Positions 4,049-23,315 of a stretch of DNA of 52,361 bases are shown here, piece after piece (positions within the stretch are counted from its first letter, which is position 1; every line of letters begins with the position of its first letter). The stretch is taken from assembly GCA_964626495.1 (NCBI GenBank), contig CAZVFT010000004.1, positions 1-52,361 of the forward strand, written 5' to 3'. The DNA comes from an uncultured bacterium. Lineage in GTDB: Bacteria > Fidelibacterota > Marinisomatia > Marinisomatales > CAZVFT01. Made by a program: the position numbers and the translations under genes. Below the pieces are notes generated by a model. It had not been told where the DNA came from. It saw nothing but the letters and a program-made list of their open reading frames with translations, and did no database searches.

Positions 4049-4101
4049 CTGGTAAAACTAAATAGAGTCTGTCTATAATGTAGTGCTTTCTTTCTCTATA
4101 G

Positions 4102-4247: not shown

Positions 4248-4270
4248 CTATTGAAACAAAGACTCGTGAC

Positions 4271-4299
4271 TTTATAGACAAACACTAAATAATCCCCAA
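4271..4299 (-). promoter_or_regulatory. Weak sigma70-like promoter candidate reading into the hairpin array
   Basis: Minus strand reads TTGGGG (4299-4294), 17-nt spacer, TATAAA (4276-4271). The -35 is poor and there is no experimental support. Confidence 0.2.
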
Positions 4300-4305
4300 T
4301 AACGA

Positions 4306-6336: not shown

Positions 6337-6403
6337 AATAGGCTCCATTTTTGTTTCAATATACTTTCACAGAAAGTTAAAATCAAGGTTAGAAGTGTCC
6401 TAT

Positions 6404-7399: not shown

Positions 7400-7460
7400 A
7401 TTACAAAATTGATAAGAAGTATCAAAGCCATGAATGAAGTATTTTTGTTATGACAACTTG

Positions 7461-7489
7461 TTGACATGACGAAATTGTTATGGTAATTT
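7461..7489 (+). promoter_or_regulatory. Sigma70-like promoter candidate for the plus-strand surface locus
   Basis: TTGACA (7461-7466), 17-nt spacer, TAATTT (7484-7489), 58 nt upstream of ATG 7548. It sits among 'TTGTTATG' boxes at 7445 and 7475 and 'TTGTTGACATGAC' at 7458. Confidence 0.35.
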
Positions 7490-7547
7490 TCAAGCCGGTA
7501 GAGGGTAAAAACGAAAAGCTTTCCCACATATACCTTATTATAAAGAA

Positions 7548-9752
7548 ATGTCAGATATGAACCACATTCAAGGGAAAAGTCCCGCTCGATTGAGAGGTAT
7601 ACTTCTCATTGCTATCCTGCTTACTTTCACTCTTCCTTCTACTACTCACTCACAAGAACCAACAGTTGAGTGGGTTAATGACAAGTACACATCCGTGGGG
7701 CAACTTGGAATGACCATCACAAACTTTGGTATTCTGGGGGAAGGATGGAATAACGCTGACCAACCCTCATGCCGGTATAAACAACATACTGAGATTCTTC
7801 GGGAACAGATAGAACATTTCTCCTTTGCTGGACTCTGGATTGGTGGTAAAGTAAATGGAGACCGACGAGTCTCCACTGCTATTGTTGATGGTGTTTTTCC
7901 ATCGGCTCAGGAAGGATTTGAATATATACCAACATCTGGCATCCAAATTCGTTCATCTATCTCATCCACCGCTGAAGATCCTATGGCAGAATATTATTCT
8001 CCGTATGCTGTCTCTCACCAGGATTTTGTCACTAATTTTCAAGACTTCGATTTTAGTATACCATATCATACTCAATTGGGTATCAGTGTGCATCTGGAAT
8101 CCTACGCCTGGAACTTCACCTTTGCAGATGCATTTGTCATTCTCAATTATACCATCATTAACCAATCGGCAAATACAATTAAAGACATCTATGCTGGCAT
8201 CTGGGCTGATGTCTCTGTGGCAAATATGAACTATACCAGTGAATATGAGCCTGGTGGTGGATTCACGTGGTATGACAATTTGGATGGCTATGATGAATCC
8301 ATTGACGAAAGCAACTATACACGGGATATTGCTTATCAATACGATGCGGATGGTGACGATGGATGGGCAGAATCGTATATCGGTCTCACTATGCTGGGAG
8401 GGACTACTCCAAGACCCTATTTACAATCTCATTACAACCAATGGGTCTGGTCCTCCACTACCAACGATGACTATCCAGAATATACTATGCCTTTAAATGA
8501 TTATGACCGGTACGATCAATTAATGACTGATGTACCAATAGGAACTGGAGATTTGTATACGAATGGTTACCCAAATCAAACAGATAGCTGGTTAATGATG
8601 ATCTCATGCGGTCCCCTTGGAAGCCAGCCAGCTAATGTGGACTCTTCCAGCTGGGAATTGCTACCGGGAGATTCCTGTAATGTTGTCTTTGCAGTCGTAA
8701 CAGCTCTATGGAATGGAAGCGGTGAAGATTCTGGTACGAGAAGGGCAAACCTTCACATCAATTCCGATTGGGCTCAAAAAGCGTATGACGGAGAGGATAA
8801 AAATCGCAACAATATACTGGATGAAGGTGAAGATATAAATCAGAATGGTAAAATAGACCGATACATACTTCCTGAACCACCCCCCGTTCCAAATATGACG
8901 ACAGATGTGGGGGATCAAACGGTCACTATCTACTGGCAAAACAATGCTGAACATTTCATCGATCCTGTGAGTCTGGAGAAAGACTTTGAGGGATATCGCA
9001 TATACGGAGCAAGGAAGACTTATGGAGATGAATCAGCGGAATTCACACTTCTGGCAGAGTTTGATTTAATAGATAGCGTTTACTCAAATATAGGCTATAA
9101 TACAGGATTTGATGCAATAAGGATAAAAAATGATTTCGGAGAACCAGACAGTCAACAAATTAACGGCAGGTATTATCATTATAAATACACAAATGATGGT
9201 GTAAAGAACGGTTGGCTGAATTATTATGCCATCACATCTTATGACCGTGGGAATCCCGATGCTAATTTAGAGAGTCTTGAAAGTTCTGAGTATGCCAATC
9301 GAAAATATGTTTATCCAGGAGTGAAGGTGGCGGATGATGATTGGACTGCCGACCCAAAAGTTTATCCCAATCCCTACCGAGGACAGGCAACCTGGGAAGG
9401 TTATGGCAGCCGGGAACAAATGATCTGGTTCACCAATCTTCCATCAAAAGCAGATATCCGGATTTTTACTCTGGCTGGTGACATCGTAGATATAATACAT
9501 CACGATGAATCCAGATATGCAGGTCAAGATATTGTGAATATTGACGAAGGAAATCACAAAGTTTTACCCGATGGTACACCTACCTATCCTGAAGCACCCC
9601 ATTTCAGCGGTGGCGAGCACGCCTGGGATCTTATCACAAGATATGAACAAGCTATTGCCTCTGGGCTTTATCTGTTCAGTGTGGAAAACAAAGTTGAAGG
9701 AAGCTCATCTTACGGTCGGATAAAAGAAGGTAAATTTCTTATTATTAAATGA
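7548..9752 (+). CDS. Large secreted hypothetical protein with Ca-binding-like loops, an FN3-like segment and a variant T9SS/FlgD-Ig-like C-terminal domain
   Basis: 734 aa. Hydrophobic N-terminus 'LRGILLIAILLTFTLPSTTHSQ'. 'DGEDKNRNNILDEGEDINQNGKIDRY' at 8787-8864. 'PPVPNMTTDVGDQTVTIYWQNN...FEGYRIYG' is FN3-like. C-terminus 'KVYPNPYRGQ...ADIRIFTLAGDIV...SGLYLFSVE...KFLIIK'. Confidence 0.6.
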   Translation: MSDMNHIQGKSPARLRGILLIAILLTFTLPSTTHSQEPTVEWVNDKYTSVGQLGMTITNFGILGEGWNNADQPSCRYKQHTEILREQIEHFSFAGLWIGGKVNGDRRVSTAIVDGVFPSAQEGFEYIPTSGIQIRSSISSTAEDPMAEYYSPYAVSHQDFVTNFQDFDFSIPYHTQLGISVHLESYAWNFTFADAFVILNYTIINQSANTIKDIYAGIWADVSVANMNYTSEYEPGGGFTWYDNLDGYDESIDESNYTRDIAYQYDADGDDGWAESYIGLTMLGGTTPRPYLQSHYNQWVWSSTTNDDYPEYTMPLNDYDRYDQLMTDVPIGTGDLYTNGYPNQTDSWLMMISCGPLGSQPANVDSSSWELLPGDSCNVVFAVVTALWNGSGEDSGTRRANLHINSDWAQKAYDGEDKNRNNILDEGEDINQNGKIDRYILPEPPPVPNMTTDVGDQTVTIYWQNNAEHFIDPVSLEKDFEGYRIYGARKTYGDESAEFTLLAEFDLIDSVYSNIGYNTGFDAIRIKNDFGEPDSQQINGRYYHYKYTNDGVKNGWLNYYAITSYDRGNPDANLESLESSEYANRKYVYPGVKVADDDWTADPKVYPNPYRGQATWEGYGSREQMIWFTNLPSKADIRIFTLAGDIVDIIHHDESRYAGQDIVNIDEGNHKVLPDGTPTYPEAPHFSGGEHAWDLITRYEQAIASGLYLFSVENKVEGSSSYGRIKEGKFLIIK

Positions 9753-9780
9753 ATTCGTAAACAAGAAAAGGAGAAAGCCT

Positions 9781-12700
9781 ATGAAACAGTTAATAAAAAT
9801 AACAATAACCCTTGTCGTGATGTTTGCACTTGTTCCAAGTGTAATTGGACAAACGTCTATTTACGACATTCAATATACAACAGAGCCAGGTTCTGGAAAT
9901 GACTGCTATCCATCCCCTATTGTTGGACAAACTGTTACTATTTCCGGACTTGTTACTGCTATGAGGAGCACCGGCACCAGATGGTATATTCAGGATGGTG
10001 ATGGCATATGGGATGGCATCTACATCTATGACTCCTCTGTTCAACCGGCTCAGGGAGACTCCGTCACATTCACAGCAGATGTGGCAGAATACTACGGTTT
10101 AACCGAGCTGATGAATGTATCAAATTTCACCAATCATTCGTCAGGACATACACTGTACAACCCACTATCTGTTTCCACGGGAGTCCTTGGTAGCGGCTGT
10201 TCAGCAGAGGGAGAAGAATATGAAGGTCTGCTTATAGTACTGACGGATGTGACCGTAACTCAGGAACCCGATCAATATGGTCAGTGGTTTGTTGATGACG
10301 GAACTGGTGAGTGTGAGATTGAGGATGCCCTCTTCTCTGCTACCACGAACATTGGAGATTTCTTCGATTCCATTATAGGTGTGGTTAGTTGGGGTTATGG
10401 GGAATATGAAGTAAACCCCAGAAGTGCAGATGACCTGATCACTACAGCCATCGGACCAACACTTGTTGATATGACCTTTACACCCACATTCCCTGCACCC
10501 AATGAAGATGTCGATGTGACAGTAACTGCTTACGACGACAAAACCGGATTGGTCATTGATCTGTATATTTCGGTGGATGGAGGTACATATACCTCTTCAC
10601 TGATGACGGACAATGGAGACTCAACCTATTCTGGAATCGTCCCTGGTCAGCCCGAATGGAGCACCTCCGATTTCTATGCTCTGCTCACCGATAGCGACAA
10701 CAATATTGTTACTTCTGATACCTTCAGGGTGACCTACTTTACATTGCCTGAGGTTATTCCCATTGACTCTGTTCAATATACTGATGACCCCTCTGGAGAT
10801 TCCCCCTTAAATGGACAGCAGGTTACCATCAGTGGTGTGGTGACAGCAGAATTCTGGGGAAGCAGCGATAACCGGTACCTGTTCGTCCAAGATGCGGAAA
10901 CCCCATGGAGTGGAATTATGGTCTTTGAATACGGTGGATGGGACAGCTTTGACTTTCAATCTTCAGGTGGAACTGTTCACTCCGTGGCTGAAGGAGAGCA
11001 GGTAATTGTTACAGGTACGGTGGACGAATACTACGGAAAAACGGAAATTACTAACGTGACTCAAGTTCTAATTCTTGGTCCAGCAACGAATATGATTAAT
11101 CCAATAGATGTAACTCCCGGTCAGATAATGACCGGTGGCTCTGATGCGGAAGCATATGAAGGCGTACTGGTGCGCGTTACTGACGTAATTGTTGATGATG
11201 AAGACCTAGGCAACGGCGAATGGTCAGTAACTGATGGACAGAATTCTGTCCGCGTGGATGATCTATGGGATTACTATTACTGGCCAGAAGAGGATGCAGA
11301 ACTTGAAAGTGTTACTGGATGCCTTGACTACAGTTATAGCGATTTCAAGATTCAGCCCCGTCTTGCAAGGGACGTTGTTGAAGAGGGAATAGTACGACTT
11401 CAGCGTATCCAGCAGGTTCTTTACAGCGACCTTATCAAAGCAGGTGAGGATGCCACGTCTGACATATCCTATATGTATGGGGATACTGTTACTATTGAAG
11501 GTATCGTTACTATGCCCACAGGTTTGAGTTATGCCGGTGCTGGAGTCAAGTTCATCTATGAAGATGAACACGGCGGTCCCTGGAGTGCAATCCTCTCATA
11601 TGATCCTGACAGCACAGCCTTCCCTGTTCTATTTGAAGGTGACAAGGTCCGGGCAACAGGATCCATATATGAGTACAATACAGCGGTATCCAATATGACA
11701 GAGCTCTTTATCACTCAGCCAGTTCAAATAATAGATTTTGGCGTTGATTTACCACCTGTGGATACCGTTGCTACTGGTGATCTCCGCTGGCCAACAGAAG
11801 CGGAACAATGGGGTACTGTGATGGTTTCCGTTAATGATGTTGTAGTCACACAAGACCAGCTACAGTATGAAATGTTCGCTGTTGATGATGGAACGGGTGA
11901 AGTGCGGGTGGATGATGATTCTGACAGTATACAGGTATGGTTTGATACGACCGGGGCTCCACCTATTGGTACACTCATTGAGTCAATACGCGGATGGGTC
12001 TATCACCACTATGGTGCTTATAGTGATTCTTCTGCTTATAAACTGGAACCCTTGTACATTTCCGATATCGTCTTTGGAGCAGGACCTCCAAGCTTCCAGG
12101 ATGTTGGAAGGGTTCCGTGCGTACCAGGACCAGATGACGATGTAACAGTGACCTGCGAGATTAGTGATAACTCTATCGTAGTAAACGCAGAACTCTTTTA
12201 CTCAATTGACGGTGGTGCATATCAATCCACTGCTATGATAAATACCTCTGGCATGGATTGGGAAGGCACAATTCCAGCTACAGGCATCGAAGGTGGTACT
12301 GTTGATTACTACATCGAGGCTACAGATGATGGTGCGGGCCAAGGAGGAGTAGAAACCAGCACTCATCCAAGCAACATCACTCAGCTTCAGCTGGGCTATG
12401 TCACAAAGTCTGATGACCTGGACATTGCCGACGTCCAGTTCACGGAGTGGCCTCTTGGCGATTCAAGATTCAATGGATGTGAAGTGACTGTTGCCGGAAT
12501 CGTTACTGCTGATACAGCTCAATACTATAGTGGTTATGGAGCATATGCTATGCAGGATGCCACAGGTCCCTGGAACGGAATCATCTTTGATGCAGTGGAT
12601 GTTAGTCAACCTCTGTTGACACGTGGCGACGAAGTGACTATTACAGGAACTGTAGAAGAATATGATCCTGAGTGGCACTTTAAATACGATAACAATACAA

Positions 12701-13362
12701 AGATAATCAATGTATCCGATGTTACCATAAATAGTTCAGGGAATACCATTACTCCCCAATCCGTGGCGACAGCTGATCTCGCTCAGGATGCAGAGGAAGT
12801 GGAATCATATGAAGGGTGCCTTGTGAAGATATCAAACGTGACAGTCACTGCAATAAACGAGTATGACTGGAGTGTGGAAGATGAATCAGGCACTTCCTGT
12901 CTCATTGATAACGATATGGCTAATGCCGAAGCAGATACGTTTCTGAATCACCTCGAAATTGGAACTCAACTATCATACGTTACCGGTTTATTCATCTTCA
13001 GCTTCGGAACTTACAAGATCGAAGTAAGGGATATGAATGACATAGGAACGGTGAGTATTGACGAGGATTTTGAGGCTCAACCGTTTAGCTACAAACTGTA
13101 TCCCAACTTCCCCAATCCATTCAATCCTGAAACGCGAATACGCTTTGAGATTGGAAACAAGGAACACGTTAAGCTAATTGTGTACGACATTCTCGGGCGG
13201 CAAGTGAAAACGCTTATCAATAGCACCTATGATGCGGGTCACTATGTGATCAACTGGGACGGCACGAATAACTACGCGCACCCAGTAAGCACCGGACTCT
13301 ACATCTACAGAATCAAAGCAGGTAATTTCATCGAATACAACAAGATGATGCTGATAAGATAG
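9781..13362 (+). CDS. T9SS-sorted surface protein with four tandem bipartite OB-like modules and two Ig-like inserts
   Basis: 1193 aa. Signal peptide 'MKQLIKITITLVVMFALVPSVIGQ'. AAGGAG SD. The module 'I..[IV]Q[YF]T...G..VT[IV].G[IV]VTA....[FY].QD....W.GI.......GD.V...G.V.EY.G.TE[LI]' followed by 'YEG.LV.[LV].[DN]V.V......W.V.D..G' occurs 4 times. A type-A-like sorting domain sits at the C-terminus. Confidence 0.65.
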   Translation: MKQLIKITITLVVMFALVPSVIGQTSIYDIQYTTEPGSGNDCYPSPIVGQTVTISGLVTAMRSTGTRWYIQDGDGIWDGIYIYDSSVQPAQGDSVTFTADVAEYYGLTELMNVSNFTNHSSGHTLYNPLSVSTGVLGSGCSAEGEEYEGLLIVLTDVTVTQEPDQYGQWFVDDGTGECEIEDALFSATTNIGDFFDSIIGVVSWGYGEYEVNPRSADDLITTAIGPTLVDMTFTPTFPAPNEDVDVTVTAYDDKTGLVIDLYISVDGGTYTSSLMTDNGDSTYSGIVPGQPEWSTSDFYALLTDSDNNIVTSDTFRVTYFTLPEVIPIDSVQYTDDPSGDSPLNGQQVTISGVVTAEFWGSSDNRYLFVQDAETPWSGIMVFEYGGWDSFDFQSSGGTVHSVAEGEQVIVTGTVDEYYGKTEITNVTQVLILGPATNMINPIDVTPGQIMTGGSDAEAYEGVLVRVTDVIVDDEDLGNGEWSVTDGQNSVRVDDLWDYYYWPEEDAELESVTGCLDYSYSDFKIQPRLARDVVEEGIVRLQRIQQVLYSDLIKAGEDATSDISYMYGDTVTIEGIVTMPTGLSYAGAGVKFIYEDEHGGPWSAILSYDPDSTAFPVLFEGDKVRATGSIYEYNTAVSNMTELFITQPVQIIDFGVDLPPVDTVATGDLRWPTEAEQWGTVMVSVNDVVVTQDQLQYEMFAVDDGTGEVRVDDDSDSIQVWFDTTGAPPIGTLIESIRGWVYHHYGAYSDSSAYKLEPLYISDIVFGAGPPSFQDVGRVPCVPGPDDDVTVTCEISDNSIVVNAELFYSIDGGAYQSTAMINTSGMDWEGTIPATGIEGGTVDYYIEATDDGAGQGGVETSTHPSNITQLQLGYVTKSDDLDIADVQFTEWPLGDSRFNGCEVTVAGIVTADTAQYYSGYGAYAMQDATGPWNGIIFDAVDVSQPLLTRGDEVTITGTVEEYDPEWHFKYDNNTKIINVSDVTINSSGNTITPQSVATADLAQDAEEVESYEGCLVKISNVTVTAINEYDWSVEDESGTSCLIDNDMANAEADTFLNHLEIGTQLSYVTGLFIFSFGTYKIEVRDMNDIGTVSIDEDFEAQPFSYKLYPNFPNPFNPETRIRFEIGNKEHVKLIVYDILGRQVKTLINSTYDAGHYVINWDGTNNYAHPVSTGLYIYRIKAGNFIEYNKMMLIR
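13090..13359 (+). other. T9SS type-A-like C-terminal sorting domain of the 9781-13362 protein
   Basis: 'YKLYPNFPNPFNPETRIRFEIGNKEHVKLIVYDILGRQVKTLI...GLYIYRIKAGNFIEYNKMMLIR'. Confidence 0.75.
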
Positions 13363-13382
13363 AATGATGGAAATAATAGTGT

Positions 13383-13410
13383 TGCGGGGGCTTAAATTTT
13401 AGCTCCCGCA
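13383..13410 (+). terminator. Stem-loop after the 1193-aa gene (attenuating hairpin or weak terminator)
   Basis: 'tgcgggggct' (13383-13392) pairs with 'agctcccgca' (13401-13410), with one G-U, around an 8-nt loop. The downstream U-tract is poor ('gtgctttcc'). Confidence 0.35.
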
Positions 13411-13434
13411 GTGCTTTCCTTGCTGGTATAAGTG

Positions 13435-15843
13435 ATGATAAAAAGAACGCTACTCATTCTCTTAGTTCTGCTGTGGGCGTGTTCCCCCTGGGAATACGAG
13501 GATCCCACTTCGCCAATAGGTAACCAAGCACCAGAAACATACCTGACTCTTACAGCGTCAGATACCATTTATGCCTCCCTGGAGAATGTTGATATCATTA
13601 TTGATCCAGTGACTGGTGACACAACCTACGATACCACCTGGACTTACTATATTGGAGAGGATCCAGATACGGGGGTAATTGTGGATACTCTTGCTTCAGC
13701 TTTTAAAGACACTTTCTCCAGTCGACAGGAACTATATTGGTGGGGTGAAGATAGGGATGGTGAAGTCAATGGATATCGGTACCGGTGGAGTACAGATACT
13801 ACCTGGACTTATACCACGAACGAAGTGGGAATATTCTACATTCCGATAACTACTTTATTTGATGTGTTCATATTCGAAGTGGTCGCTATAGATAATGACA
13901 GTCTGATCGATCCATCACCAGCTCGACTCGTACTTCCAATTCGGAATTCCCCACCAGAAATCAGCTTTCGTTACCTTAGCAATCCTCTTTATGACGATTT
14001 ACCCGAACCCAAATCTATCTATTACACCTTTCCTACTCGAACCTTCGTTTGGGATATCTTCGATCAAGATGGTAAGGAGACCATTGATACTGTTTACTAT
14101 GCTATGGATGATACGTGCGAAACATGCTGGACAGCATTATATGCCGCTTCCTATAGCAGTATCACCCTCGATTCTATCCCACCTGGTGAACATAAATTTT
14201 ACTTAAAAGTTAAGGATATTGCTGGCGCTTATAGTCGTACTATTTTCTTTCCTGATGAGAGTGATGTTAACTATCCAGACACATGGATTGTGAAAGAACC
14301 AGCAGGCGAACTTCTCCTAGTAGATGACTATCCTCTGGATACACCCAATAATGCTTTGAACTGGTATCAAAGCCTTTTAGATACAATGATAAACGTAGAT
14401 GGATACTCTATCTGGGAAATTGGAGAAGAACTTCCCTATTCAAGTATCGATCTAACAGCTACACTATCATATTTTGATAAAATTATTTGGTATGCGGGTT
14501 ATGTCGGCAGCTTCACATATCACGATGCCGATGGAAGTATCAACGCATTCATAGAAAAAGGAGGACACTTTTTTCTCAATTTCGCCACATTTGCTGATAC
14601 AGCACTTTCCTGGTTTCCTATCAGTAGTGTGACCCCTTTGAATCCCGGTGGAGATATAAATTCCAAGAAAAAACTTATTCCTCAAATCGATGATGCTGAT
14701 ACTTTAATGATTGCCAGTACAATCTCCGTGAATGTAAAGGGATTTGAAAGCACTGAATATTTTCAGAGCCTTTATCATCTCCAGTTACCTGAGGATCCTG
14801 AAGACCTCTGGCAGGGTGAACCCAATATATGTGGAATGTTTAAAAATCCCTTATCTCCCAATAGTGGAAACGCTGTGATTTTGTCCATTCCACTATATAA
14901 AAGTTATACTTCTGTCCTGGACACCAAATGGGAAATCCAGAATGAAGAACATAACAATATTCTATATGGTACTGATTTTATTAATGACCAGACGGGCTGG
15001 GTTGTTGGAGAAGATGGAATCATTCTACATACAATTGATGGAGGTGATTCATGGGAAGTGCAATACCCAACAGATAAAGACTTGAGATCCGTTGATTTTG
15101 TTGATGAGATGACGGGATGGGCGGTTGGAAAAAGTGGTACAATTCTCCATACTGTTGATGGCGGTACAAGTTGGAGTGAACAGAATAGTGAAACTTCTAA
15201 AACGCTTTACTCCGTGATCTTTATTGACGAAAACAGTGGATGGGTAGCGGGAAAAAGTGGAACGATTTTACAAACGAATGATGGTGGGAATAATTGGAGC
15301 CAACAAGAGAGTGGAACGGGGATGCGACTTGAAGATATTACATTTATCGATTCCCAAAAAGGATGGTGTGTTGGCGCCCAAGGTACTATTTTATTCACGG
15401 ATGATGGTGGCGAGCACTGGATAACAATTGATAGTGGCTTAAGTAACGAACCTTGGTTCTACTCAGTCTGTTTCATCGATTCACTGGAAGGCTGGATTGT
15501 GGGTGTCTCAGGAATCATTCTAAAAACTACAAATGGTGGGGATAACTGGAGTATATTATATAGTGAAATTCAAACCACATTATGTGATGTACTCTTTTTA
15601 AATAATGACTTGGGATGGGCTGTCGGAAAAGAGGGAAAAATAATATCAACTATTGATGGCGGTGAAAATTGGGTCGAAGTCTTTAGTAATACAGGACACG
15701 ATTTATGGTCTATTTACCTTCTTGACTCGGATGTTGGAAAAATTGTTGGTGGTTCCAGTGGCCAAAGCATTATCTTAAATAAAAAAGCAGGTGGTGGATC
15801 AAACAGATTCTTTAATCTTTTGTTAAACAATATTTTTCAATAA
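13435..15843 (+). CDS. Putative lipoprotein: ~500-aa N-terminal region of unknown function + C-terminal BNR/Ycf48-like beta-propeller
   Basis: N-terminus 'MIKRTLLILLVLLWACS' (lipobox-like). GTG 13432 is an alternative start. Six clear blades of 'GW.VG..G.I[LI].T.[DN]GG..W', e.g. 'TIDGGDSWEVQ','TVDGGTSWSEQ','TNDGGNNWSQQ','TDDGGEHWITI','TTNGGDNWSIL','TIDGGENWVEV'. Confidence 0.65.
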   Translation: MIKRTLLILLVLLWACSPWEYEDPTSPIGNQAPETYLTLTASDTIYASLENVDIIIDPVTGDTTYDTTWTYYIGEDPDTGVIVDTLASAFKDTFSSRQELYWWGEDRDGEVNGYRYRWSTDTTWTYTTNEVGIFYIPITTLFDVFIFEVVAIDNDSLIDPSPARLVLPIRNSPPEISFRYLSNPLYDDLPEPKSIYYTFPTRTFVWDIFDQDGKETIDTVYYAMDDTCETCWTALYAASYSSITLDSIPPGEHKFYLKVKDIAGAYSRTIFFPDESDVNYPDTWIVKEPAGELLLVDDYPLDTPNNALNWYQSLLDTMINVDGYSIWEIGEELPYSSIDLTATLSYFDKIIWYAGYVGSFTYHDADGSINAFIEKGGHFFLNFATFADTALSWFPISSVTPLNPGGDINSKKKLIPQIDDADTLMIASTISVNVKGFESTEYFQSLYHLQLPEDPEDLWQGEPNICGMFKNPLSPNSGNAVILSIPLYKSYTSVLDTKWEIQNEEHNNILYGTDFINDQTGWVVGEDGIILHTIDGGDSWEVQYPTDKDLRSVDFVDEMTGWAVGKSGTILHTVDGGTSWSEQNSETSKTLYSVIFIDENSGWVAGKSGTILQTNDGGNNWSQQESGTGMRLEDITFIDSQKGWCVGAQGTILFTDDGGEHWITIDSGLSNEPWFYSVCFIDSLEGWIVGVSGIILKTTNGGDNWSILYSEIQTTLCDVLFLNNDLGWAVGKEGKIISTIDGGENWVEVFSNTGHDLWSIYLLDSDVGKIVGGSSGQSIILNKKAGGGSNRFFNLLLNNIFQ

Positions 15844-16011
15844 CCTAAATTGAGCGATTCTATTGCACTACCGAAGAAAAAACTCACGTCTAACGAGTTG
15901 TACTCATTGTGGAATGCTTAGACCAAAATAACAAATACAAACTGAACAGTTTATGCTGCAGAATCTCTAAAATTAGGAATAAATATCTGCTAAATATGAC
16001 GAGTATTGTGA

Positions 16012-18846
16012 ATGATTAAAAAGATTACAATTATTCTCTTTCTACCTTTGTTGCTTATTGCTCAAGATCGTGGAATTATTGAGGGTACTGTTACAAATTC
16101 GGAAACAAACGAGCCTCTCCCGGGAGCAAACGTTATCATAAAAGGAACTTATTACGGAGCTGCAACAGATTTAGAAGGTCACTTCCTCATCAGTGGTGTT
16201 TCCCCGGGTAATTATGACATTGAAGCTTCAATGATGGGCTATAAGGTTATGCTCCAGACAGGTATTCAGGTAAAACCTAACACGACTGTAAAAATTCAAT
16301 TTCTCATGGAGCAGACAGTTCTTACTTTTGGAGAAGAAGTTGTAGTTATCGGGAAAAAACCACTTTTTGATGTGGATGAAACCGCTTCCATCAGTCGAGT
16401 TTCCAAAGACGATATTCAACAAAAAATCGTGTCCAGCATTGAAGATATTCTGTCTGAACAGATTGGTGTAACCAAAGTGGATAACGAAATCCATATCCGG
16501 GGAGGACGAATTGATGAGACTCTCTACATCATCGATGGGCTTTCCATTAAAGATCCTCTCTCAGGATATTCAGGTAATCTTTTTATCAACCCTGATGCGA
16601 TCGAAGACCTTGAAATTATCACTGGTGGGTATAATGCAGAACATGGTCAGTCAATGTCCGGAGTGTTAAATGTCAAGCTCAAAGAAGGAAGGGACAAATT
16701 TGAGGGAAGTCTAAAGCTTACCAGCGATAACTGGGGAATGTCAAATGATAATTTCTCCCATTTTTCTACAGACCGGATTGAATATAACTTTGGAGGTCCC
16801 TCTCTCATGCTGGAATTGTTTCCCAAAATTTTGAGGATTAACTTGCCCGGGAAATTCTCCTTTTTCAGTAACGGGTATGGAAAAATCAGCAATACTCAAC
16901 TTCCCACTGCCTCGAAACTGTACCCCCACAGGAACTGGTCTCCACCTTTTGGAATGTCTGAAGACGTTGCCAACGAAATCATGGAAAAACTTTCTCCCAG
17001 AGAAGAAAATAACTGGCATCTGCTTCATAAACTTACCTGGGAAATCACTTCTCAGAAAAAACTGTCTGCTTCTTATGATATATCACTAAACATTTCTCAG
17101 GGATACTTTTTACCCCGGGCATTTTCATATACCTATTTCCCTTACCGATATATCAATATTCTCGATTACTACAACACAATCACCCGTGAGTCGCGACTTC
17201 TCAAATTCAACTGGACCCACACCCTGAATCCTAAAACGTTTTATGAAGCAACTCTGGGTCATTTCATAACCCTCGAACACAGCGCCGCTCAGGATCTTCA
17301 CTGGACTGAGTATAAGGAGCACCTTGATATTGATCCAATTAATTACACCATTGATGATAGGGATGGTAACATAGGTATTACTTATGGGGACGAATTCTAT
17401 GATACGGGATTTACATCTGAATGGTATGATATCTCAAGCGACAACTATCGTTTTGACCTAGATTGGACATACCAGACATTGAAACGTCATAAGACAAAAG
17501 CTGGCATAGAGGGAACGTTTACAGAAATCCAGGTTGTAGACATTGATGAACCCTGGACTGGTACAACTGGATTAGGAAAAAATTACGACATTTATCGAGC
17601 AAAAACTGCTTTTGGAGCCTTTTACATACAAGATCGAATCATATTTGAGGGAATGACCGCTAACATAGGGATAAGGTATGATTTTTGGTTTCCTGGAACG
17701 TACTATGATGCAGATACTACATTTACAACCTCTAGTGACACAATTCTACCATCGTGGTTAACAATTGAGGAGGCTCTGGAAAGATCTATTATTTATGGCC
17801 AAGATGCTCTTGAGAAATTCAGAGATGAGACCTTTCAACTCTTTGATCATAGAGTAAAAGGACGTCTAAGTCCCCGGGTAGGGATCTCTCATCCAGTTAC
17901 GGACAATGATGTTCTCTATTTCTACTATGGTCATTTTTCTCAACTTCCAACATTTCAATACGTCTATGCTAAGCTTCAATCAGTGTCCCAGTCCACATAT
18001 CAGCTCTTTGGCAATCCAAACTTGAATCCCAAGACGACTGTTCAATATGAACTGGGGATTAAACACAGGTTCAGTGAAGATCAAGTCATGGAAATTAAAG
18101 CATACTGGAAAGATATGTTTGACTACGAGACATCTCAAACTATTACACTCCCCCCACCATATTCAAACTTACATTTTAATATGTATTTTAACGCTGACTA
18201 TGCTCGTGCCAGGGGAATTGAGATTATCTTGAAGAGCCGCTTCTGGCAACATTGGTATGCTGATGTGAACTTCAATTATTCGATCATCACAGGTAAGAGC
18301 TCCGACCCCAATGACAATCTTCTCGTTCAGGCAGGTGAGCTTAGAGAAAAACCGCTCGGAGAAGTATTTATGCGGTGGGATAAACCTGTTCAGTTCTTTG
18401 CGAACCTTTCCTACAATCATCCCTCGGGTTTGACTGTTTCCTCCCGTTTTGAATATGAAACAGGACGACGCTATACTCGAGGCATTCCTGATACAGAAGA
18501 ATATCCTCCTGACGGGATCCGGGAAGTAAGCGGTATCAGATATTATGACGGCACCATAGAGGACGATAAACCTTACTATTACATCAGTGAACAACCGGTA
18601 ACCAACAGTGATCTTAAGATCTCAAAAATGTTCAAAATTGGAAAACTAAAATATCGAATTTTCTTAGAAGTTGAAAATGTCTTCGACGAGCGAATTCCGA
18701 GACGTATTAATCCTTTCACGGGACGTGGATACGATCCGGGAGAAATCATTCCATACAGCATGATCAACAGTCCAAACCCGAATTATAATCCAAACCGTGT
18801 TCGTAGACCCAGAACAACTGAACTTGGAATACAGATTATTTTCTGA
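16012..18846 (+). CDS. TonB-dependent receptor with N-terminal carboxypeptidase-regulatory-like domain
   Basis: 944 aa. 'IIEGTVTNSETNEPLPGANVIIKGTYYGAATDLEGHFLISGVSPGNYDIEASMMGYK'. Plug 'IHIRGGRIDETLYIIDGLSIKDPL'. Long beta-barrel region ending in 'ELGIQIIF'. Confidence 0.9.
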   Translation: MIKKITIILFLPLLLIAQDRGIIEGTVTNSETNEPLPGANVIIKGTYYGAATDLEGHFLISGVSPGNYDIEASMMGYKVMLQTGIQVKPNTTVKIQFLMEQTVLTFGEEVVVIGKKPLFDVDETASISRVSKDDIQQKIVSSIEDILSEQIGVTKVDNEIHIRGGRIDETLYIIDGLSIKDPLSGYSGNLFINPDAIEDLEIITGGYNAEHGQSMSGVLNVKLKEGRDKFEGSLKLTSDNWGMSNDNFSHFSTDRIEYNFGGPSLMLELFPKILRINLPGKFSFFSNGYGKISNTQLPTASKLYPHRNWSPPFGMSEDVANEIMEKLSPREENNWHLLHKLTWEITSQKKLSASYDISLNISQGYFLPRAFSYTYFPYRYINILDYYNTITRESRLLKFNWTHTLNPKTFYEATLGHFITLEHSAAQDLHWTEYKEHLDIDPINYTIDDRDGNIGITYGDEFYDTGFTSEWYDISSDNYRFDLDWTYQTLKRHKTKAGIEGTFTEIQVVDIDEPWTGTTGLGKNYDIYRAKTAFGAFYIQDRIIFEGMTANIGIRYDFWFPGTYYDADTTFTTSSDTILPSWLTIEEALERSIIYGQDALEKFRDETFQLFDHRVKGRLSPRVGISHPVTDNDVLYFYYGHFSQLPTFQYVYAKLQSVSQSTYQLFGNPNLNPKTTVQYELGIKHRFSEDQVMEIKAYWKDMFDYETSQTITLPPPYSNLHFNMYFNADYARARGIEIILKSRFWQHWYADVNFNYSIITGKSSDPNDNLLVQAGELREKPLGEVFMRWDKPVQFFANLSYNHPSGLTVSSRFEYETGRRYTRGIPDTEEYPPDGIREVSGIRYYDGTIEDDKPYYYISEQPVTNSDLKISKMFKIGKLKYRIFLEVENVFDERIPRRINPFTGRGYDPGEIIPYSMINSPNPNYNPNRVRRPRTTELGIQIIF

Positions 18847-19859
18847 TGAGAACGTATCGTTACACCACCACCTTTATATTGTTTCTAGTCCTTTCTGTTG
18901 GAAGAAGTCAACAGAATCTTTTTCCAATCCTCGGTGGACAGAGGGTTGGTACATCCATTTTCACATTTCTTAAAATTGGTGTAGGAGCCAGACCTGCAGG
19001 TATGGCTGAAGCTGTCGTAGCAACAAATCAGGACGCTTCCGCTCTCTACTACAATCCAGCAATCATCGCCCAGCTGAAAAACACCCAATTCACGGCTACC
19101 CGGATAGAATGGCCAGCAGATATTCACTACGACTTCTTCGGGATCTCGAGACACATCAGTGGCAGTCACTATCTCGGAATCAGTGCTGGAATTCTTCATA
19201 TGACACCTATGGAAGAAACCACAGAATACATGCCCCATGGAACTGGCAATTATTTTATCTTTCAGGACCAATTTATGGGAATTACCTATAGTGCCCGATT
19301 ATCTGATAGATTCAGTTTCGGAATCACAGCTAAATACGTAAATGAAAATCTGGCTGGAAACAAAATGGACACCTGGCTTATAGATATGGGCACTTTCTAC
19401 TGGACGGGATTCAGGTCCCTCCGATTCTCCGCCTCCCTGTCTCACTTCGGTCCTCAGTGTAAACCTGATGGAACGTATGAACGATTCGTACTTGATAGAG
19501 ATACAGGTGAGGAAGTCATCATCGATTCTGAATATAAACTTTTCTCGCCCCCTACGGTCTTCCGGGTAGGAACAGCAATGGAAATCTTTTCGTCTCATTA
19601 TCAAACAATGACTATCGCCATTCAGCTAAATCATCCTGTGGATGATGCGGAAAATATTGTTGCTGGTGTTGAATACCTCTTTATGAAATCCTTTGCTGTG
19701 AGAGGTGGATATAAACTAAACAAAGAAGGTGAAGATTTCTCACTGGGTGTTGGTTTATACCTACCATTGGGACCGGTAAAAGTATCGGTGGATTATGCCT
19801 ATACCAATTTTTCCTATCTCTCCGACCCTACGCGACTTAGTATTGGTATGGAGTTTTAA
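18846..19859 (+). CDS. PorV/PorQ-family-like outer-membrane beta-barrel
   Basis: 337 aa. Signal peptide, then 'FLKIGVGARPAGMAEAVVATNQDASALYYNPAIIAQL' (the ARxxGMG...DAsA.yyNPA signature as I recall it for PorV). C-terminal 'LSIGMEF'. The ATG overlaps the receptor stop (TGATG at 18844-18848). Confidence 0.7.
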   Translation: MRTYRYTTTFILFLVLSVGRSQQNLFPILGGQRVGTSIFTFLKIGVGARPAGMAEAVVATNQDASALYYNPAIIAQLKNTQFTATRIEWPADIHYDFFGISRHISGSHYLGISAGILHMTPMEETTEYMPHGTGNYFIFQDQFMGITYSARLSDRFSFGITAKYVNENLAGNKMDTWLIDMGTFYWTGFRSLRFSASLSHFGPQCKPDGTYERFVLDRDTGEEVIIDSEYKLFSPPTVFRVGTAMEIFSSHYQTMTIAIQLNHPVDDAENIVAGVEYLFMKSFAVRGGYKLNKEGEDFSLGVGLYLPLGPVKVSVDYAYTNFSYLSDPTRLSIGMEF

Positions 19860-19861
19860 TT

Positions 19862-21337
19862 ATGTCAAAAAAACATCTCCATCACTTTCACCTTCGCCTT
19901 TGCCGCTACCTCACTCTCACTGGATTGATATGGTTGTTTAGTTCCTGTGTTGATAAAATGTCTCTTCCTACAGATATTAGTATGCAGGGAGGGAGTTTTA
20001 CCGGAGATACCACTTACCTGCGTCTTAATCCCATCTGGGATGAGGACAATGGGTATCAATTTCTAACCCCCATTGAAATTTCCATTGCACAGGATGGTCA
20101 TATCTTCATAGCAGATTCATCAAGTCAACGAATTTTTGTTATTGATCAGGGTGGAAAGGTGCTGGAAGAGTTTGAGCCCCTGACAAACTTAATAGATGAA
20201 GAAGGAAACAGCCTTTCTCCCATTGATGTGGATGTTGACCAAAAAATGAATGTCTTTTTTATTGATGGGTCCCGACGTGTTTATCGATGGAACCAGATCT
20301 GGAATGATCTTGGAATTGATTCAATTGCTATTTCTGCAACATTCATCAAAAATACTACGGATAGCACCGTTTCTCCAGGATCTGAGGAATGGCTAAAGCT
20401 AGCGAACAGTGAAGAGTGGGAACTTTATGAAGTTGAATGGTCCACTGATGATGAAAACATTGATTCCCTACTTAATCCTCATCTCTTCTTTGACGCAGGT
20501 ACTCCGGGAAACGAAGCAGCTGATACTTATTTCAATAGCTCTCTTTCACTCTTTTCCGGCATCTCTACATCTGGAAATAATGATTTTTTCTACGTAACGG
20601 ATGAATATTTTGAGCGTATTGTTCGAATAGATTTTGAGCGGTCACACTTCATTAAATTAGGAAGTGGTAACGAAGTTTGGGTTCATAAAGGTGTTTTTAA
20701 AGGATCGAAACTCAAAGTTGCTAACTGGGGAACTGGTGCTGGGACTGTTAACGATCCTGTTGCTATTGATGTTGATTATGACGGCAATATTTACTACGCA
20801 CAATTGGGAAATTACTTTTCCATCCATAAAATTCATGAAGTCACGGGAGACTATACAACCTACCCCTCGGTTTTTCAACCAGGACAGAATGAAATTATGG
20901 AACTGTTCCGATTTGCAGATCCTATGGATGTCGCTGTAGATAAAAGCCAATTCATTTATGTAGCTAATACAGGAGAGCAGGAGATTCAGGTCTTCAATTC
21001 TTATGGTAACTTTTTTAAAAAAGCTGGGATTCAAAAGGTTATAGTTGACACTACAATTTGGGAAATCAATGTAATTGATACGACTGAATTAGATACCTCG
21101 ATATGGATTTATGATCCTGACACAGTCTTGGTTGATACAACCCTTTATATATTTACTTATGACAGTACAGCAATAGATACTTTTTATACTTCTGAAGAGA
21201 AAGGAATCCTCCAGTCACCAAGGGCTGTTGCAGTAGATGATCGCGGAGTTATTTATGTCTGCGATACACCCAATTCGAGGATTGTCCGATATCGCCTTTC
21301 TAATATTTTAGAGGAAGATATTATACCAGAAAATTAG
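19862..21337 (+). CDS. NHL-repeat lipoprotein
   Basis: Lipobox 'LIWLFSSC'. NHL-like blades 'IAQDGHIFIADSSSQRIFVIDQGGK','VDQKMNVFFIDGSRRVYRW','AVDKSQFIYVANTGEQEIQVFNSYGNF','AVDDRGVIYVCDTPNSRIVRYRL'. The ATG lies 2 nt after the upstream stop. Confidence 0.7.
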   Translation: MSKKHLHHFHLRLCRYLTLTGLIWLFSSCVDKMSLPTDISMQGGSFTGDTTYLRLNPIWDEDNGYQFLTPIEISIAQDGHIFIADSSSQRIFVIDQGGKVLEEFEPLTNLIDEEGNSLSPIDVDVDQKMNVFFIDGSRRVYRWNQIWNDLGIDSIAISATFIKNTTDSTVSPGSEEWLKLANSEEWELYEVEWSTDDENIDSLLNPHLFFDAGTPGNEAADTYFNSSLSLFSGISTSGNNDFFYVTDEYFERIVRIDFERSHFIKLGSGNEVWVHKGVFKGSKLKVANWGTGAGTVNDPVAIDVDYDGNIYYAQLGNYFSIHKIHEVTGDYTTYPSVFQPGQNEIMELFRFADPMDVAVDKSQFIYVANTGEQEIQVFNSYGNFFKKAGIQKVIVDTTIWEINVIDTTELDTSIWIYDPDTVLVDTTLYIFTYDSTAIDTFYTSEEKGILQSPRAVAVDDRGVIYVCDTPNSRIVRYRLSNILEEDIIPEN

Positions 21338-21428
21338 TCGACGTATAAACTACTTAAGGATTATTGGTTACTTCAACAACACCATCCATTTACTCCCTAT
21401 AAATGGGGATACGATGGACAAGCCTTCC

Positions 21429-23234
21429 TTACTTCAACAGCAGCATCTTACGGGTTTGTGTGAAACCTTCTGCACGTATCTGATACAGGTAAACACCAGC
21501 ACCCACAGACTTACCGAAACTGTCCATACCATCCCAAACTGCCTTATGATAACCACTCACCACTCTACCCCTAACCAGTTCTTTTACCACTCTTCCCATC
21601 AAATCATAAATCACAATGGTTACATAAGATTGTTCAGGCAGCTCGTAGCGGATTGTTGTAACAGGATTGAAGGGATTAGGGTAATTCTGAAATATCAAAA
21701 TGCGTTGCGGTGTTGAAGGCTCCTCATTGATAGTTATTCCAAAATTTTGTGCTCCTGGTGTTCCCAAATCGCCATTGCCATAAGGCTCGGTGGAAGTACT
21801 CCAGTTGCTACCCACACTGTTATCCATTGCCGGGTCAAGAAGCGCCATAGAAGCACCATTGGGATCAGGAAAATTGGGACCGCCATCATATTCCACCCTA
21901 TCAACCTCGATGCTATTTTCATTCAGAAGAATAATTTCATCACCCGAATTGCCAAGCGTAATAGATGAATAATCGTAGTCTAACTCAACTCCCCCATTCA
22001 GCGTTGTGTCGCCATTTTGCCCAAGTACAAAATAATCCCCAGGATGGACATAAAGCGATTCCGAATCACACTGTATCACATGATTGTCTGTCCCCAGATC
22101 CCGGATTGTCCAACCGCATAGATTTACTACGATAGAATCCGCATTGAAAATTTCAAACCACTCACCATAAGAATCACTCACAGCTGCAGGATTTTGCATA
22201 ATCTCATTGATAACTATATTCGGAGTGGCAATATCGGTAATGAAAGAGAGTTCCAAGTACACCGGAATGTGATCAGATGATACCACCAATGCATCGGCAA
22301 TTGTATCAGGAACCGCAGAGTTAATCCCGTAGTTGATCGCTTGATTGAAATGCTGACCGTCATTTCCAAAAGGAGTATAGGAATCTCCAACATAATTTAG
22401 ATTGTTTGTATTGGTGATCTGCGAGGAAGCTAAGATGAAATCAAAACGGTCATCCATTCCACCCCCTGCTCCACCATTTCCATAATACCTTGGAGATTGA
22501 GTGTGAACATCCCGAAAGGAATAATTGATATGCCAGTAGCCAATCCGATTAATGGGATCGAAAACCCGTCCGTCATTATCAACTTGAGATTCTGTTAATC
22601 TCTGGAATCCTCCTTCCCCGGAATGGTAAAAATTAAAATCTCCCAACACTAAAAACGGAATAGATGGATCCAGCTCATTAAGGTAATTTCGTAAATTATT
22701 TGCCTCTGATTCCCTATCGTCTATATCTGCGGGATCATCTCCTGCCTTCAAATGAACACCATACAACCTGAATTCCATATTAGTAGCCATGTGTTTCATT
22801 ACAAATTCGATTACGTCCCGATGACCCCACTGATTGGTCACATCCACCGTACTGGTGCTGATAAACTCAAAGTATGCAGGTTTAAAAAACAGTGCGATGT
22901 CTATATCGGTAGAATATTGATCGGTAAAATCCGCCCCTGCATAGAGACTGGGTGTGTCATAATTCAACACATCTGTTAAAAAATGAGTGTATCCTGTTGA
23001 ATTATGAACCTCCTCAGCCATAATAATATCCGGACTGACATAATGAACAACATCTCTCATATCGTCTTCACGATCATCATCACTACTGGTTCCTGAATAA
23101 TCAAGGAGATTGTAGGTCATAATCTTCTGAGTATAAAAAGATTGTGCCTGAATAGATGGGCTCACAAATAAACCCAGAATTGAAATAAAAAAAATAGACC
23201 GAACGATATAAAAAGAACTCACGACTTTAATCAT
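21429..23234 (-). CDS. Secreted endonuclease/exonuclease/phosphatase (EEP) family nuclease with lamin-tail domain and T9SS sorting domain
   Basis: 601 aa. EEP motifs 'KIMTYNLLDY','FLVLGDFNF','SSDHIPVYLEL'. LTD 'IVINEIMQNPAAVSDSYGEWFEIFNADSIVVNLCGWTIRD'. Sorting domain at the C-terminus. Confidence 0.8.
   Translation of the reverse strand: MIKVVSSFYIVRSIFFISILGLFVSPSIQAQSFYTQKIMTYNLLDYSGTSSDDDREDDMRDVVHYVSPDIIMAEEVHNSTGYTHFLTDVLNYDTPSLYAGADFTDQYSTDIDIALFFKPAYFEFISTSTVDVTNQWGHRDVIEFVMKHMATNMEFRLYGVHLKAGDDPADIDDRESEANNLRNYLNELDPSIPFLVLGDFNFYHSGEGGFQRLTESQVDNDGRVFDPINRIGYWHINYSFRDVHTQSPRYYGNGGAGGGMDDRFDFILASSQITNTNNLNYVGDSYTPFGNDGQHFNQAINYGINSAVPDTIADALVVSSDHIPVYLELSFITDIATPNIVINEIMQNPAAVSDSYGEWFEIFNADSIVVNLCGWTIRDLGTDNHVIQCDSESLYVHPGDYFVLGQNGDTTLNGGVELDYDYSSITLGNSGDEIILLNENSIEVDRVEYDGGPNFPDPNGASMALLDPAMDNSVGSNWSTSTEPYGNGDLGTPGAQNFGITINEEPSTPQRILIFQNYPNPFNPVTTIRYELPEQSYVTIVIYDLMGRVVKELVRGRVVSGYHKAVWDGMDSFGKSVGAGVYLYQIRAEGFTQTRKMLLLK
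21432..21701 (-). other. T9SS type-A-like C-terminal sorting domain of the EEP nuclease
   Basis: 'ILIFQNYPNPFNPVTTIRYELPEQSYVTIVIYDLMGRVVKELV...GVYLYQIRAEGFTQTRKMLLLK'. Confidence 0.75.
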
Positions 23235-23315
23235 TTATAATCCTTTCTCCATTAAATATTTACTTTATATCCGTTTAGAGATATTGGTTTTAAAAAAAAA
23301 GGTGATTCAACGTAT

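Follow-up and report, generated by a model that had tools for sequence, protein, structure and literature searches.

A six-gene cassette around a TonB-dependent transporter is conserved in Marinimicrobia and other FCB lineages and may capture and import extracellular nucleic acid

We analyzed a 52,361-nucleotide stretch of DNA from an uncultured bacterium (contig CAZVFT010000004.1 of assembly GCA_964626495.1; hereafter the window), in which an earlier reading of the sequence (the original prediction) had proposed a surface locus for substrate capture and import around a TonB-dependent transporter (TBDT). Six genes, labelled O1 to O6, occupy positions 7548-21337 of the forward strand. O1 (7548..9752) encodes a secreted protein of 734 aa and O2 (9781..13362) a 1193-aa type IX secretion system (T9SS) cargo protein, followed by O3 (13432..15843), an 803-aa lipoprotein with the lipobox LWAC, O4 (16012..18846), the 944-aa TBDT, O5 (18846..19859), a 337-aa outer-membrane barrel of the FadL-like PorV/PorQ family, and O6 (19862..21337), a 491-aa lipoprotein with the lipobox FSSC and an NHL beta-propeller; O3 and O6 are the sole lipoproteins of the locus. 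On the reverse strand, O7 (21429..23234) encodes a 601-aa T9SS cargo protein that joins an endonuclease/exonuclease/phosphatase (EEP) domain to a lamin-tail domain (LTD) and a C-terminal sorting domain (CTD). All seven open reading frames (ORFs) lie where the original prediction had placed them, and hidden Markov model (HMM) searches recovered the domains it had assigned to O4, O5, O6, O7 and the C-terminus of O3. The same searches agreed with its observation that the locus ORFs include no SusD-like gene, glycoside hydrolase or peptidase. Both flanks consist of housekeeping genes, including QueG, NUDIX, CysS, Ddl, FtsK and GcvT.

The proteins of the window were compared with those of 83 related loci (designated L and a number). 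The closest relatives of O4 all come from Marinimicrobia (SAR406, Neomarinimicrobiota, Fidelibacterota), the nearest being 99% identical and encoded in the metagenome-assembled genome (MAG) NIOZ-UU84, with more than 100 further clusters at 62-69% identity; these transporter relatives identify the host as a member of Marinimicrobia and bear out the earlier suggestion that it is not a classical Bacteroidetes. Some contigs with this Marinimicrobia/FCB-type locus are filed under MAGs named as Opitutia, Winogradskyella, Parcubacteria and Saccharimonadales (L044, L067, L071 and protein P0262), where they are probably binning contaminants. The order O1-O2-O3-O4-O5-O6 is kept in all 42 Marinimicrobia loci in which O1 and O6 are both present. 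Gene order is thus conserved throughout the phylum and, as described below, beyond it, so the six-gene unit of the original prediction stands, but in Marinimicrobia the unit also takes in two further genes, U1 (6404..7399, reverse strand) and U2 (5569..6348, reverse strand).

In the typical Marinimicrobia layout, O7, O1 to O6, U1 and U2 follow one another in a single direction, and O7 lies directly upstream of O1, co-directional with it, in 18 of the 27 loci with enough upstream sequence. The window departs from this layout together with L006-L008, L011, L033, L049 and L059, since in these the O1-O6 block (7548-21337) is inverted between O7 and U1, leaving O7 convergent and downstream of O6. 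The inversion accounts for the "facing" nuclease as well as for the divergent genes upstream, and it marks O7 as an operon member that was displaced in the clade of the window. No inverted repeats were found at the inversion end-points (7400-7547 and 21338-21428). A separate rearrangement is seen in L001, a complete 2.14-Mb Fidelibacterota chromosome (OZ252221.1), where an rve-family integrase fragment and two small ORFs (4062-4379) lie between O1 and O2, indicating that the cassette tolerates insertion at that junction.

Relatives of O4 were also sought among 1.84 billion representative proteins. Outside Marinimicrobia, this search found full-length relatives at 28-44% identity to O4, and identities in the other FCB phyla span 28-45%. 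According to cluster names and a profile search, these relatives belong to KSB1, Zhuqueibacterota, Fermentibacteria, Ignavibacteria/Melioribacteraceae, Zixibacteria, Krumholzibacteria, Eisenbacteria, Rubricoccaceae and "Bacteroidota" MAGs. Nine non-Marinimicrobia contexts were inspected. In six of them (KSB1, Ignavibacteria, a "Bacteroidota" MAG, Zhuqueibacterota, Fermentibacteria and Melioribacteraceae), HMMs made from Marinimicrobia orthologues found the complete set of six genes in unchanged order, with E values of 1e-160 to 1e-175 for O1, which is the first cassette gene in all phyla, 1e-64 to 1e-123 for O2, 1e-43 to 1e-58 for O3, 1e-91 to 1e-120 for O5 and 1e-22 to 1e-29 for O6. Over the other phyla as a whole, the ranges are 1e-158 to 1e-175 for O1 and 1e-41 to 1e-58 for the N-terminal part of O3. 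The remaining three contexts (L170-L172), assessed by gene calls and Pfam only, have the same layout, except that L171 has a Metallophos gene where the NHL gene would be. A further 80 Ignavibacteria-like loci from metagenomes keep the order too, 32 of them in full, while the rest stop at contig ends and agree as far as they go. With the arrangement of the six genes repeated in each related locus that was examined and in several phyla, the association goes far beyond chance, and chance adjacency is rejected by this synteny. As judged from these sequence comparisons, the six-gene block is an ancient cassette spread across the Fibrobacterota-Chlorobiota-Bacteroidota (FCB) superphylum and not a local arrangement.

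O2 begins with a signal peptide of the signal peptidase I type (SPI) and continues with four paralogous modules of about 200 aa, M1 (9844-10455), M2 (10756-11391), M3 (11392-12084) and M4 (12421-13074), all of the OB/DUF5689 type, with two Ig-like spacers (10456-10755 and 12085-12420) between modules and a type A CTD at its end (13093-13359; TIGR04183, 37.4 bits against a cut-off of 23). The original prediction had counted this 1193-aa protein among those lacking a recognizable catalytic motif; it is not featureless, given the four modules. The modules are mutually homologous by profile-profile comparison (hhalign probability 98-100%), which made them visible when a self-BLAST of O2 returned no repeats. 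The N-terminal OB part of the ExeM/NucH nucleases is matched three times in O2 (2.5e-27), and the OB fold PF01336 is matched as well (1.2e-8). The ExeM/NucH model NF033681 is matched over positions 1-120 only, at 95.9 bits against a cut-off of 300. Neither a PDB sequence search with O2 (nothing significant) nor Pfam searches at E values up to 5 with pieces of it (nothing usable) added to this picture. Among 30 O2 orthologues, DUF5689 (PF18942) was found in 18, the OB fold in 24 and an LTD in 13; the best DUF5689 match reaches 9.7e-20, and the match in the orthologue from L002 spans the whole model and aligns onto module M1 of O2. Outside Marinimicrobia, O2 is shorter and has two modules, yet it is always present, and in the window it is separated from O4 by a single gene, O3. 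On this domain evidence, we propose O2 as a nucleic-acid-binding arm of the system. In four of the 30 orthologues, including L039:4540-8394, the OB modules are preceded at the N-terminus by a cytochrome c domain (PSCyt1, Cytochrome_CBB3 or Cytochrom_C), an arrangement in which a haem domain is fused to a T9SS-secreted putative DNA-binding protein.

The second cargo protein, O7, combines an SPI-type leader with an EEP phosphodiesterase/nuclease domain (aa 39-330, Exo_endo_phos HMM), an LTD (aa 336-449, by HMM) and a type A CTD (aa 518-601; TIGR04183, 38.1 bits against a cut-off of 23). Its EEP catalytic set is invariant across 23 orthologues, and among solved structures it is nearest to Nocturnin and CCR4-type EEP enzymes, which are nucleic-acid/nucleotide phosphodiesterases. 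The ExeM/NucH model is again matched in part, here over positions 287-545 at 20.9 bits (cut-off 300), so that O2 and O7 match different portions of it. We propose from these features that O7 is the secreted nuclease of the system.

Enzymes that could act on nucleic acid recur beside the cassette in other lineages. In three loci, namely L089 of Melioribacteraceae and 2 of 49 Ignavibacteria-like metagenome loci, an O7 orthologue stands right after O6. In 37 of these 49, a gene encoding DUF5689, two phospholipase D (PLD) domains and a CTD follows directly after O6; the PLD domains score far better against the nuclease NucT (6e-17) than against cardiolipin synthase (3e-4). A Phosphodiest gene lies upstream of the cassette in one locus. 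In one Fermentibacteria MAG (GCA_016928395.1, L088:14777-16876), the NHL gene is followed by genes for carbamate kinase, hypoxanthine phosphoribosyltransferase and thymidine kinase, and the overlapping or near-touching junctions there suggest that nucleotide salvage is co-transcribed with the cassette. This recurrence of phosphodiesterase and salvage neighbors in other genomes lends independent support to a nucleic-acid substrate, which domain content and neighboring genes together lead us to infer for the system as a whole.

The transporter O4 has a CarboxypepD_reg N-terminal extension (CarbopepD_reg_2, 6.4e-19), a plug (8.5e-12) and a 22-strand barrel. Against the SusC/RagA model TIGR04056, it reaches 74.6 bits where the cut-off is 368, and the match covers the N-terminal region only. 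An AlphaFold2 (AF2) model of O4 (predicted local distance difference test score, pLDDT, 74) is closest to classical TBDTs, and these matches to generic transporters gave no information on the substrate. The barrel protein O5 matches the PorV/PorQ family model NF033709 over its full length at 185 bits (cut-off 90) and PorV in the PDB (6h3i) at 3e-5, with a further match to Toluene_X (4.9e-5), and it stays below the equivalog cut-offs for PorV (65 against 250 bits), PorQ (72 against 220) and PorV2 (50 against 325). In each locus with sequence beyond the TBDT gene, O5 comes after it. By these scores and this synteny, O5 is a distinct PorV/PorQ subfamily that is always coupled to a TBDT.

O1 has no significant match in Pfam (nothing usable at E values up to 5), NCBIfam or PDB sequence searches. 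Its AF2 model, built from database homologues (pLDDT 64), shows a beta-supersandwich, a fibronectin type III (FN3)-like domain and a CTD-like sandwich, and the protein reads in order as a signal peptide, the supersandwich core (about aa 90-430), an Asp-rich linker resembling Ca-binding sequences, the FN3-like domain (about aa 445-590) and the CTD-like domain (aa 600-734). The original prediction had counted three CTD proteins in the cluster. This holds for O2 and O7 by TIGR04183, but O1 falls under every HMM threshold and is CTD-like by alignment only, with YPNPY and KFLIIK ends and two family-specific insertions. Across phyla, this domain is the best conserved part of the protein, at 41-47% identity compared with 33-39% for the body. 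A T9SS CTD is normally cleaved off, which makes such conservation in O1 unusual.

In O3, the N-terminal stretch of about 500 aa (13432-14931) is the conserved cassette component. Pfam searches of it at E values up to 5 yielded nothing usable. The C-terminal Ycf48/BNR-type propeller (about 14944-15801; PSII_BNR, 7.6e-41, aa 500-800), which the original prediction had listed as a locus component, is real, but it occurs only in the window and in 6 of the 83 related loci (L064, L066, L067, L069, L071 and L073); most O3 orthologues are about 500 aa long and match only aa 1-497. On this distribution, the propeller is a lineage-specific C-terminal addition and not a part of the core. Its presence coincides with the loss of the overlap between the O3 stop and the O4 start that is found in most loci, in place of which the window has a 168-nt spacer. 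O6, identified by its NHL match (1.7e-18), is conserved after O5 in nearly all loci. In L171, a Metallophos (calcineurin-like) phosphoesterase (L171:14571-15797) takes its place after the PorV-like gene, and the O2-like protein of that locus carries an LTD.

Two genes complete the Marinimicrobia unit. U1 encodes a secreted protein of 331 aa with no family above threshold (Pfam at E values up to 5). It is fast-evolving (23-43% identity), and in 36 of 52 Marinimicrobia loci it comes straight after the O6 orthologue, on its downstream side. U2 encodes a 259-aa signal-peptide protein that is probably a small outer-membrane beta-barrel, having weak matches to DUF5777, OMP_b-brl and OmpG. Its orthologues, 61-74% identical, lie downstream of U1 in about 45 Marinimicrobia loci, and in most Marinimicrobia U2 is the last gene of the co-directional cluster. 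In the other phyla, U2 was not found next to the cassette.

The junctions described in the original prediction were all recovered: spacers of 28 nt between O1 and O2, 69 nt between O2 and O3, 168 nt between O3 and O4 and 2 nt between O5 and O6, and a 1-nt TGATG overlap that translationally couples O4 and O5. The hairpin it had reported between O2 and O3 is likewise present, as a 15-bp stem on the forward strand (13378..13415) with a folding energy of -25.4 kcal/mol (z = -3.4; an equally good fold in 0 of 200 shuffles). A terminator scan made no call at 13378-13415, and the T-tract after the hairpin is weak; it is possibly a partial terminator or an RNA-stabilizing element and could set the transcript ratio of O1/O2 to O3-O6. 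The sigma70-like promoter claimed before O1 found no support, with zero sites called in the promoter scan of 7400-7547 and promoter-like sites across the region (58) in no excess over shuffled sequence (51.5 +/- 6.9). Clear Shine-Dalgarno-like sequences precede O2 and O7 only (AAGGAG, GGAGAAAGG; intervals 9753-9780 and 23235-23260), and as O1, O3, O4, O5 and O6 lack one, ribosome-binding signals are heterogeneous across the locus. Scans of the window for tRNA genes and Rfam families returned no matches.

The closest described relatives of this arrangement are loci for DNA handling in Bacteroidia. Of the ddb loci of gut Bacteroidales, ddbABCDEF of Bacteroides thetaiotaomicron encodes three nucleases, the TBDT DdbC (WP_008762511.1), the DUF5689 protein DdbD (WP_048698952.1), which is predicted to bind DNA and cap DdbC, and DdbE (Sharan et al. 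2025, PMC12478041). The locus is needed for depletion of exogenous DNA, was called similar to a polysaccharide utilization locus (PUL) while lacking SusD, and is evolutionarily related to a system of Riemerella according to its authors (PMC12478041). Natural transformation of Riemerella anatipestifer depends essentially on two neighboring genes, RA0C_RS04915 for a CarboxypepD_reg outer-membrane protein and RA0C_RS04920 for a DUF5689 protein (PMC8459023). The locus described here resembles the Ddb loci in its SusD-less CarboxypepD_reg TBDT, its DUF5689-type surface protein with predicted DNA binding and, presumably, a secreted nuclease, for which O7 is the candidate, and the two would share a PUL-like logic of binding, cutting outside and importing. 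They differ in that the Ddb surface proteins (DdbA, D, E and F) are lipoproteins of the signal peptidase II type (SPII), whereas O2 and O7 have SPI leaders and T9SS CTDs; in that Ddb as described has no PorV-family barrel, NHL lipoprotein or homologue of O1 or O3; and in the four tandem modules of O2 compared with one in DdbD. The nuclease families may differ as well. The Riemerella system is similar in placing a CarboxypepD_reg transporter beside a DUF5689 protein, with a nuclease gene nearby and DNA crossing the outer membrane, but it serves transformation, its DUF5689 protein also has DUF5017 and is not T9SS cargo, and the other four cassette genes are unreported there.

Other well-known assemblies share single elements with the locus. 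Like the SusCD loci and utilisomes of Bacteroidota, it combines a CarboxypepD_reg-type TBDT extension with surface binding proteins, surface hydrolases and co-transcription, but it has no SusD, O4 is under the SusC/RagA cut-off and the accessory proteins travel via the T9SS. We therefore rejected an ordinary SusC/SusD PUL on the TIGR04056 score (74.6 against 368 bits), the lack of a SusD/RagB gene and the synteny. In BtuB-BtuG of Bacteroides, a beta-propeller surface lipoprotein caps a SusD-less TBDT, with vitamin B12 as the substrate; by this description BtuG is a possible analogue of O6, though propeller family and substrate differ. The ExeM/NucH proteins (NF033681) join OB, LTD and EEP in one polypeptide, whereas here these are split between O2 (OB) and O7 (EEP and LTD), and a PLD domain like that of Helicobacter NucT is fused to DUF5689 in the Ignavibacteria version; both ExeM/NucH and NucT are stand-alone nucleases and not parts of a transporter cassette. 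Within the T9SS itself, cognate PorV-like barrels retain uncleaved CTDs as a surface anchor in the pairs PorQ-PorZ, PorV-PorU and PorP/SprF-SprB (PMC10202324). These resemble our locus in that a PorV-family barrel is encoded beside CTD proteins, but they serve secretion, attachment and gliding, and for none of them is coupling to a TonB-dependent importer known. In the literature, we found no description of the O1, O3, PorV paralog and NHL components together with such a transporter. The original prediction had recognized no described system of this composition, and for the full set this stands, but the related Ddb and Riemerella loci do exist (PMC12478041, PMC8459023). By architecture, we liken the locus to Ddb-type loci, as a T9SS-coupled relative that contains a PorV paralog and has O1, O3, the PorV paralog and the NHL protein as additional conserved components.

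We propose, with moderate confidence, that the locus represents, in Marinimicrobia, a six-gene cassette (O1, O2, O3, TBDT, PorV paralog, NHL) that captures, cuts and imports extracellular nucleic acid. The earlier idea of a SusD-less capture-and-import system is kept in this proposal as far as the conserved unit around the TBDT is concerned, but it had missed the likely substrate, the described relatives and the inversion that displaced O7, and had treated the BNR propeller as core. In the mechanism that we envisage, the T9SS would export the three CTD proteins O1, O2 and O7, and O7, with its EEP and LTD domains, would fragment DNA at or near the cell surface. The four OB/DUF5689 modules of O2 would hold DNA or oligonucleotides above the transporter, filling the role that DdbD has for DdbC. 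O5, kept in a fixed ratio with O4 through their overlapping stop and start codons, would bind the retained CTDs of O1 and/or O2 and thereby keep these proteins at the transporter, in parallel to PorQ holding PorZ. The lipoproteins O3 and O6 would complete an extracellular cap, with O6 as a putative surface lid or substrate-handling partner, and O4, the proposed import channel, energized by TonB, would pass the fragments inward to the periplasm for salvage or catabolism. By analogy, O5 would probably be a dock for the O1 and O2 CTDs beside the transporter; the idea draws on the cognate PorV-like barrel pairs, the unusual conservation of the O1 CTD-like domain, the coupling of O4 and O5 and the standing of O5 as a distinct family member.

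A number of observations weigh against a nucleic-acid importer. In the window itself, O2 is below the Pfam threshold for DUF5689, and the link is made via its orthologues and profile comparison. O7 lacks the upstream position in 8 of the 27 Marinimicrobia loci, and the EEP and PLD folds also include lipid phosphodiesterases. Judged by cluster names, the distant relatives of O4 that could be assigned come only from non-Bacteroidia FCB lineages, and DdbC-like proteins of Bacteroides or Riemerella were not found among them. There is no hydrolase nearby in L170 and L172. In KSB1 (L084:11243-14113), a S8 subtilisin-like protease with a CTD comes directly after O6, and in an Ignavibacteria MAG (L085:5263-8469), a M4 thermolysin-like CTD protease sits inside the cassette; these exceptions may indicate a broader or mixed substrate range. 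Finally, the core of O1 resembles the N-terminal sandwich of GH116, GH94, GH63 and GH65 enzymes at a template modeling (TM) score of only 0.2, and as these are low-TM matches to accessory beta-sandwiches only, no carbohydrate function was drawn from them. Taken at face value, the two proteases and the O1 core would suit a general importer of polymers or debris (peptides, glycans or mixtures), with OB modules and O1 binding ligands other than nucleic acid and a hydrolase that varies by lineage. OB folds can bind oligosaccharides, a few O2 orthologues have CBM_56 and CBM_20 matches, and an amino-acid permease lies downstream in L172. We nevertheless think such an importer unlikely, even if it is the alternative we take most seriously, as the sole invariant binding protein, O2, is of the DUF5689/ExeM-OB type in all phyla, neighboring phosphodiesterases far outnumber proteases (37 PLD and 2 EEP of 49 loci, with EEP in most Marinimicrobia), and no glycoside hydrolase is linked to the cassette.

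A DNA uptake port for natural transformation, in which the O2-O4 pair would import long DNA and nucleases would trim or limit what enters, differs from the proposed nutritional role only in the fate of the DNA. NucT-type PLD nucleases have been linked to competence in Helicobacter. The DUF5689/CarboxypepD_reg pair of Riemerella is required for transformation (PMC8459023), and relatedness of the ddb locus to that system has been stated (PMC12478041). Against this, secreted nucleases and nucleotide-salvage neighbors fit degradation better, no ComEC, ComEA or DprA was found among the scanned window ORFs (all except 14 ORFs at 39.6-52.2 kb and the ORF at 37889-38368) or in the listed flanks, and the fact that oligotrophic lineages universally have the cassette in highly conserved form suggests that its core role is nutritional, so that we regard transformation as improbable. 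Scavenging of phospholipids or other phosphoesters would recast the EEP and PLD enzymes as phospholipases or sphingomyelinases, with O5 taking the lipid moiety and the TBDT the head group. The two superfamilies do include lipid phosphodiesterases, O5 has the FadL/PorV fold (Toluene_X, 4.9e-5), and Phosphodiest and sulfatase-like genes lie near the cassette in two loci, but we rate this very improbable, given that the PLD domains are nearer NucT than cardiolipin synthase (6e-17 and 3e-4) and are fused to DUF5689/ExeM OB modules, that O7 carries an LTD and resembles RNA- or nucleotide-directed EEP enzymes, and that O5 scores in the PorV/PorQ family and not as a FadL transporter. Least credible to us is a module for outer-membrane or T9SS structure or biogenesis, for example for cargo attachment, in place of a nutrient importer. 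Its near-universal, strong conservation in every locus sampled would be expected of such a module, the pairing of a PorV-family barrel with an unusually conserved CTD recalls the PorU-PorV-PorQ-PorZ attachment complex, and the beta-barrel assembly machinery (BAM) of Bacteroidota includes a surface protein bound by a FadL-like barrel (PMC12578637). The plug and 22-strand architecture of O4 is typical of importers, however, the cassette has no sortase/peptidase (a PorU-like catalytic domain) or BamA-like protein, and recurrent hydrolase and salvage neighbors point to substrate acquisition. All four alternatives rank below nucleic-acid capture and import, since none accounts equally well for an invariant OB/DUF5689 protein in combination with recurring nuclease-type enzymes.

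A bolder form of the proposal, which we put forward tentatively and consider possible but doubtful, is that the dedicated PorV/PorQ paralog permanently docks CTD-retaining O1 and O2 on the TBDT, giving, FCB-wide, a "type IX-built utilisome" in place of the SusD/lipoprotein architecture, which would serve SAR406 and related uncultured lineages as the main route for dissolved DNA in the dark ocean and sediments. Few uncultured bacteria of the deep and oxygen-poor ocean are as abundant as Marinimicrobia (SAR406), and much organic phosphorus and nitrogen there is present as dissolved DNA. Transcripts of Marinisomatota TBDTs are abundant at the deep chlorophyll maximum (PMC13096325), and Marinisomatota MAGs turned up in DNA-amended enrichments (PMC8630151), a circumstantial fit between their ecology and DNA import. 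The distribution described here takes the idea of a Ddb/Riemerella-type DNA transporter beyond a few cultured Bacteroidia, into KSB1, Zixibacteria, Fermentibacteria, Ignavibacteria and others, and suggests an ancient FCB-wide invention with swapped enzyme modules (EEP, PLD/NucT, Metallophos and sometimes proteases). If our proposal is true, the T9SS would supply and anchor the capture proteins of a TonB-dependent importer via a private PorV paralog, joining two systems that have been studied separately. For SAR406, the phylum-wide combination of a predicted DNA-binding arm, a putative secreted nuclease and a transporter would offer a testable route for DNA turnover.

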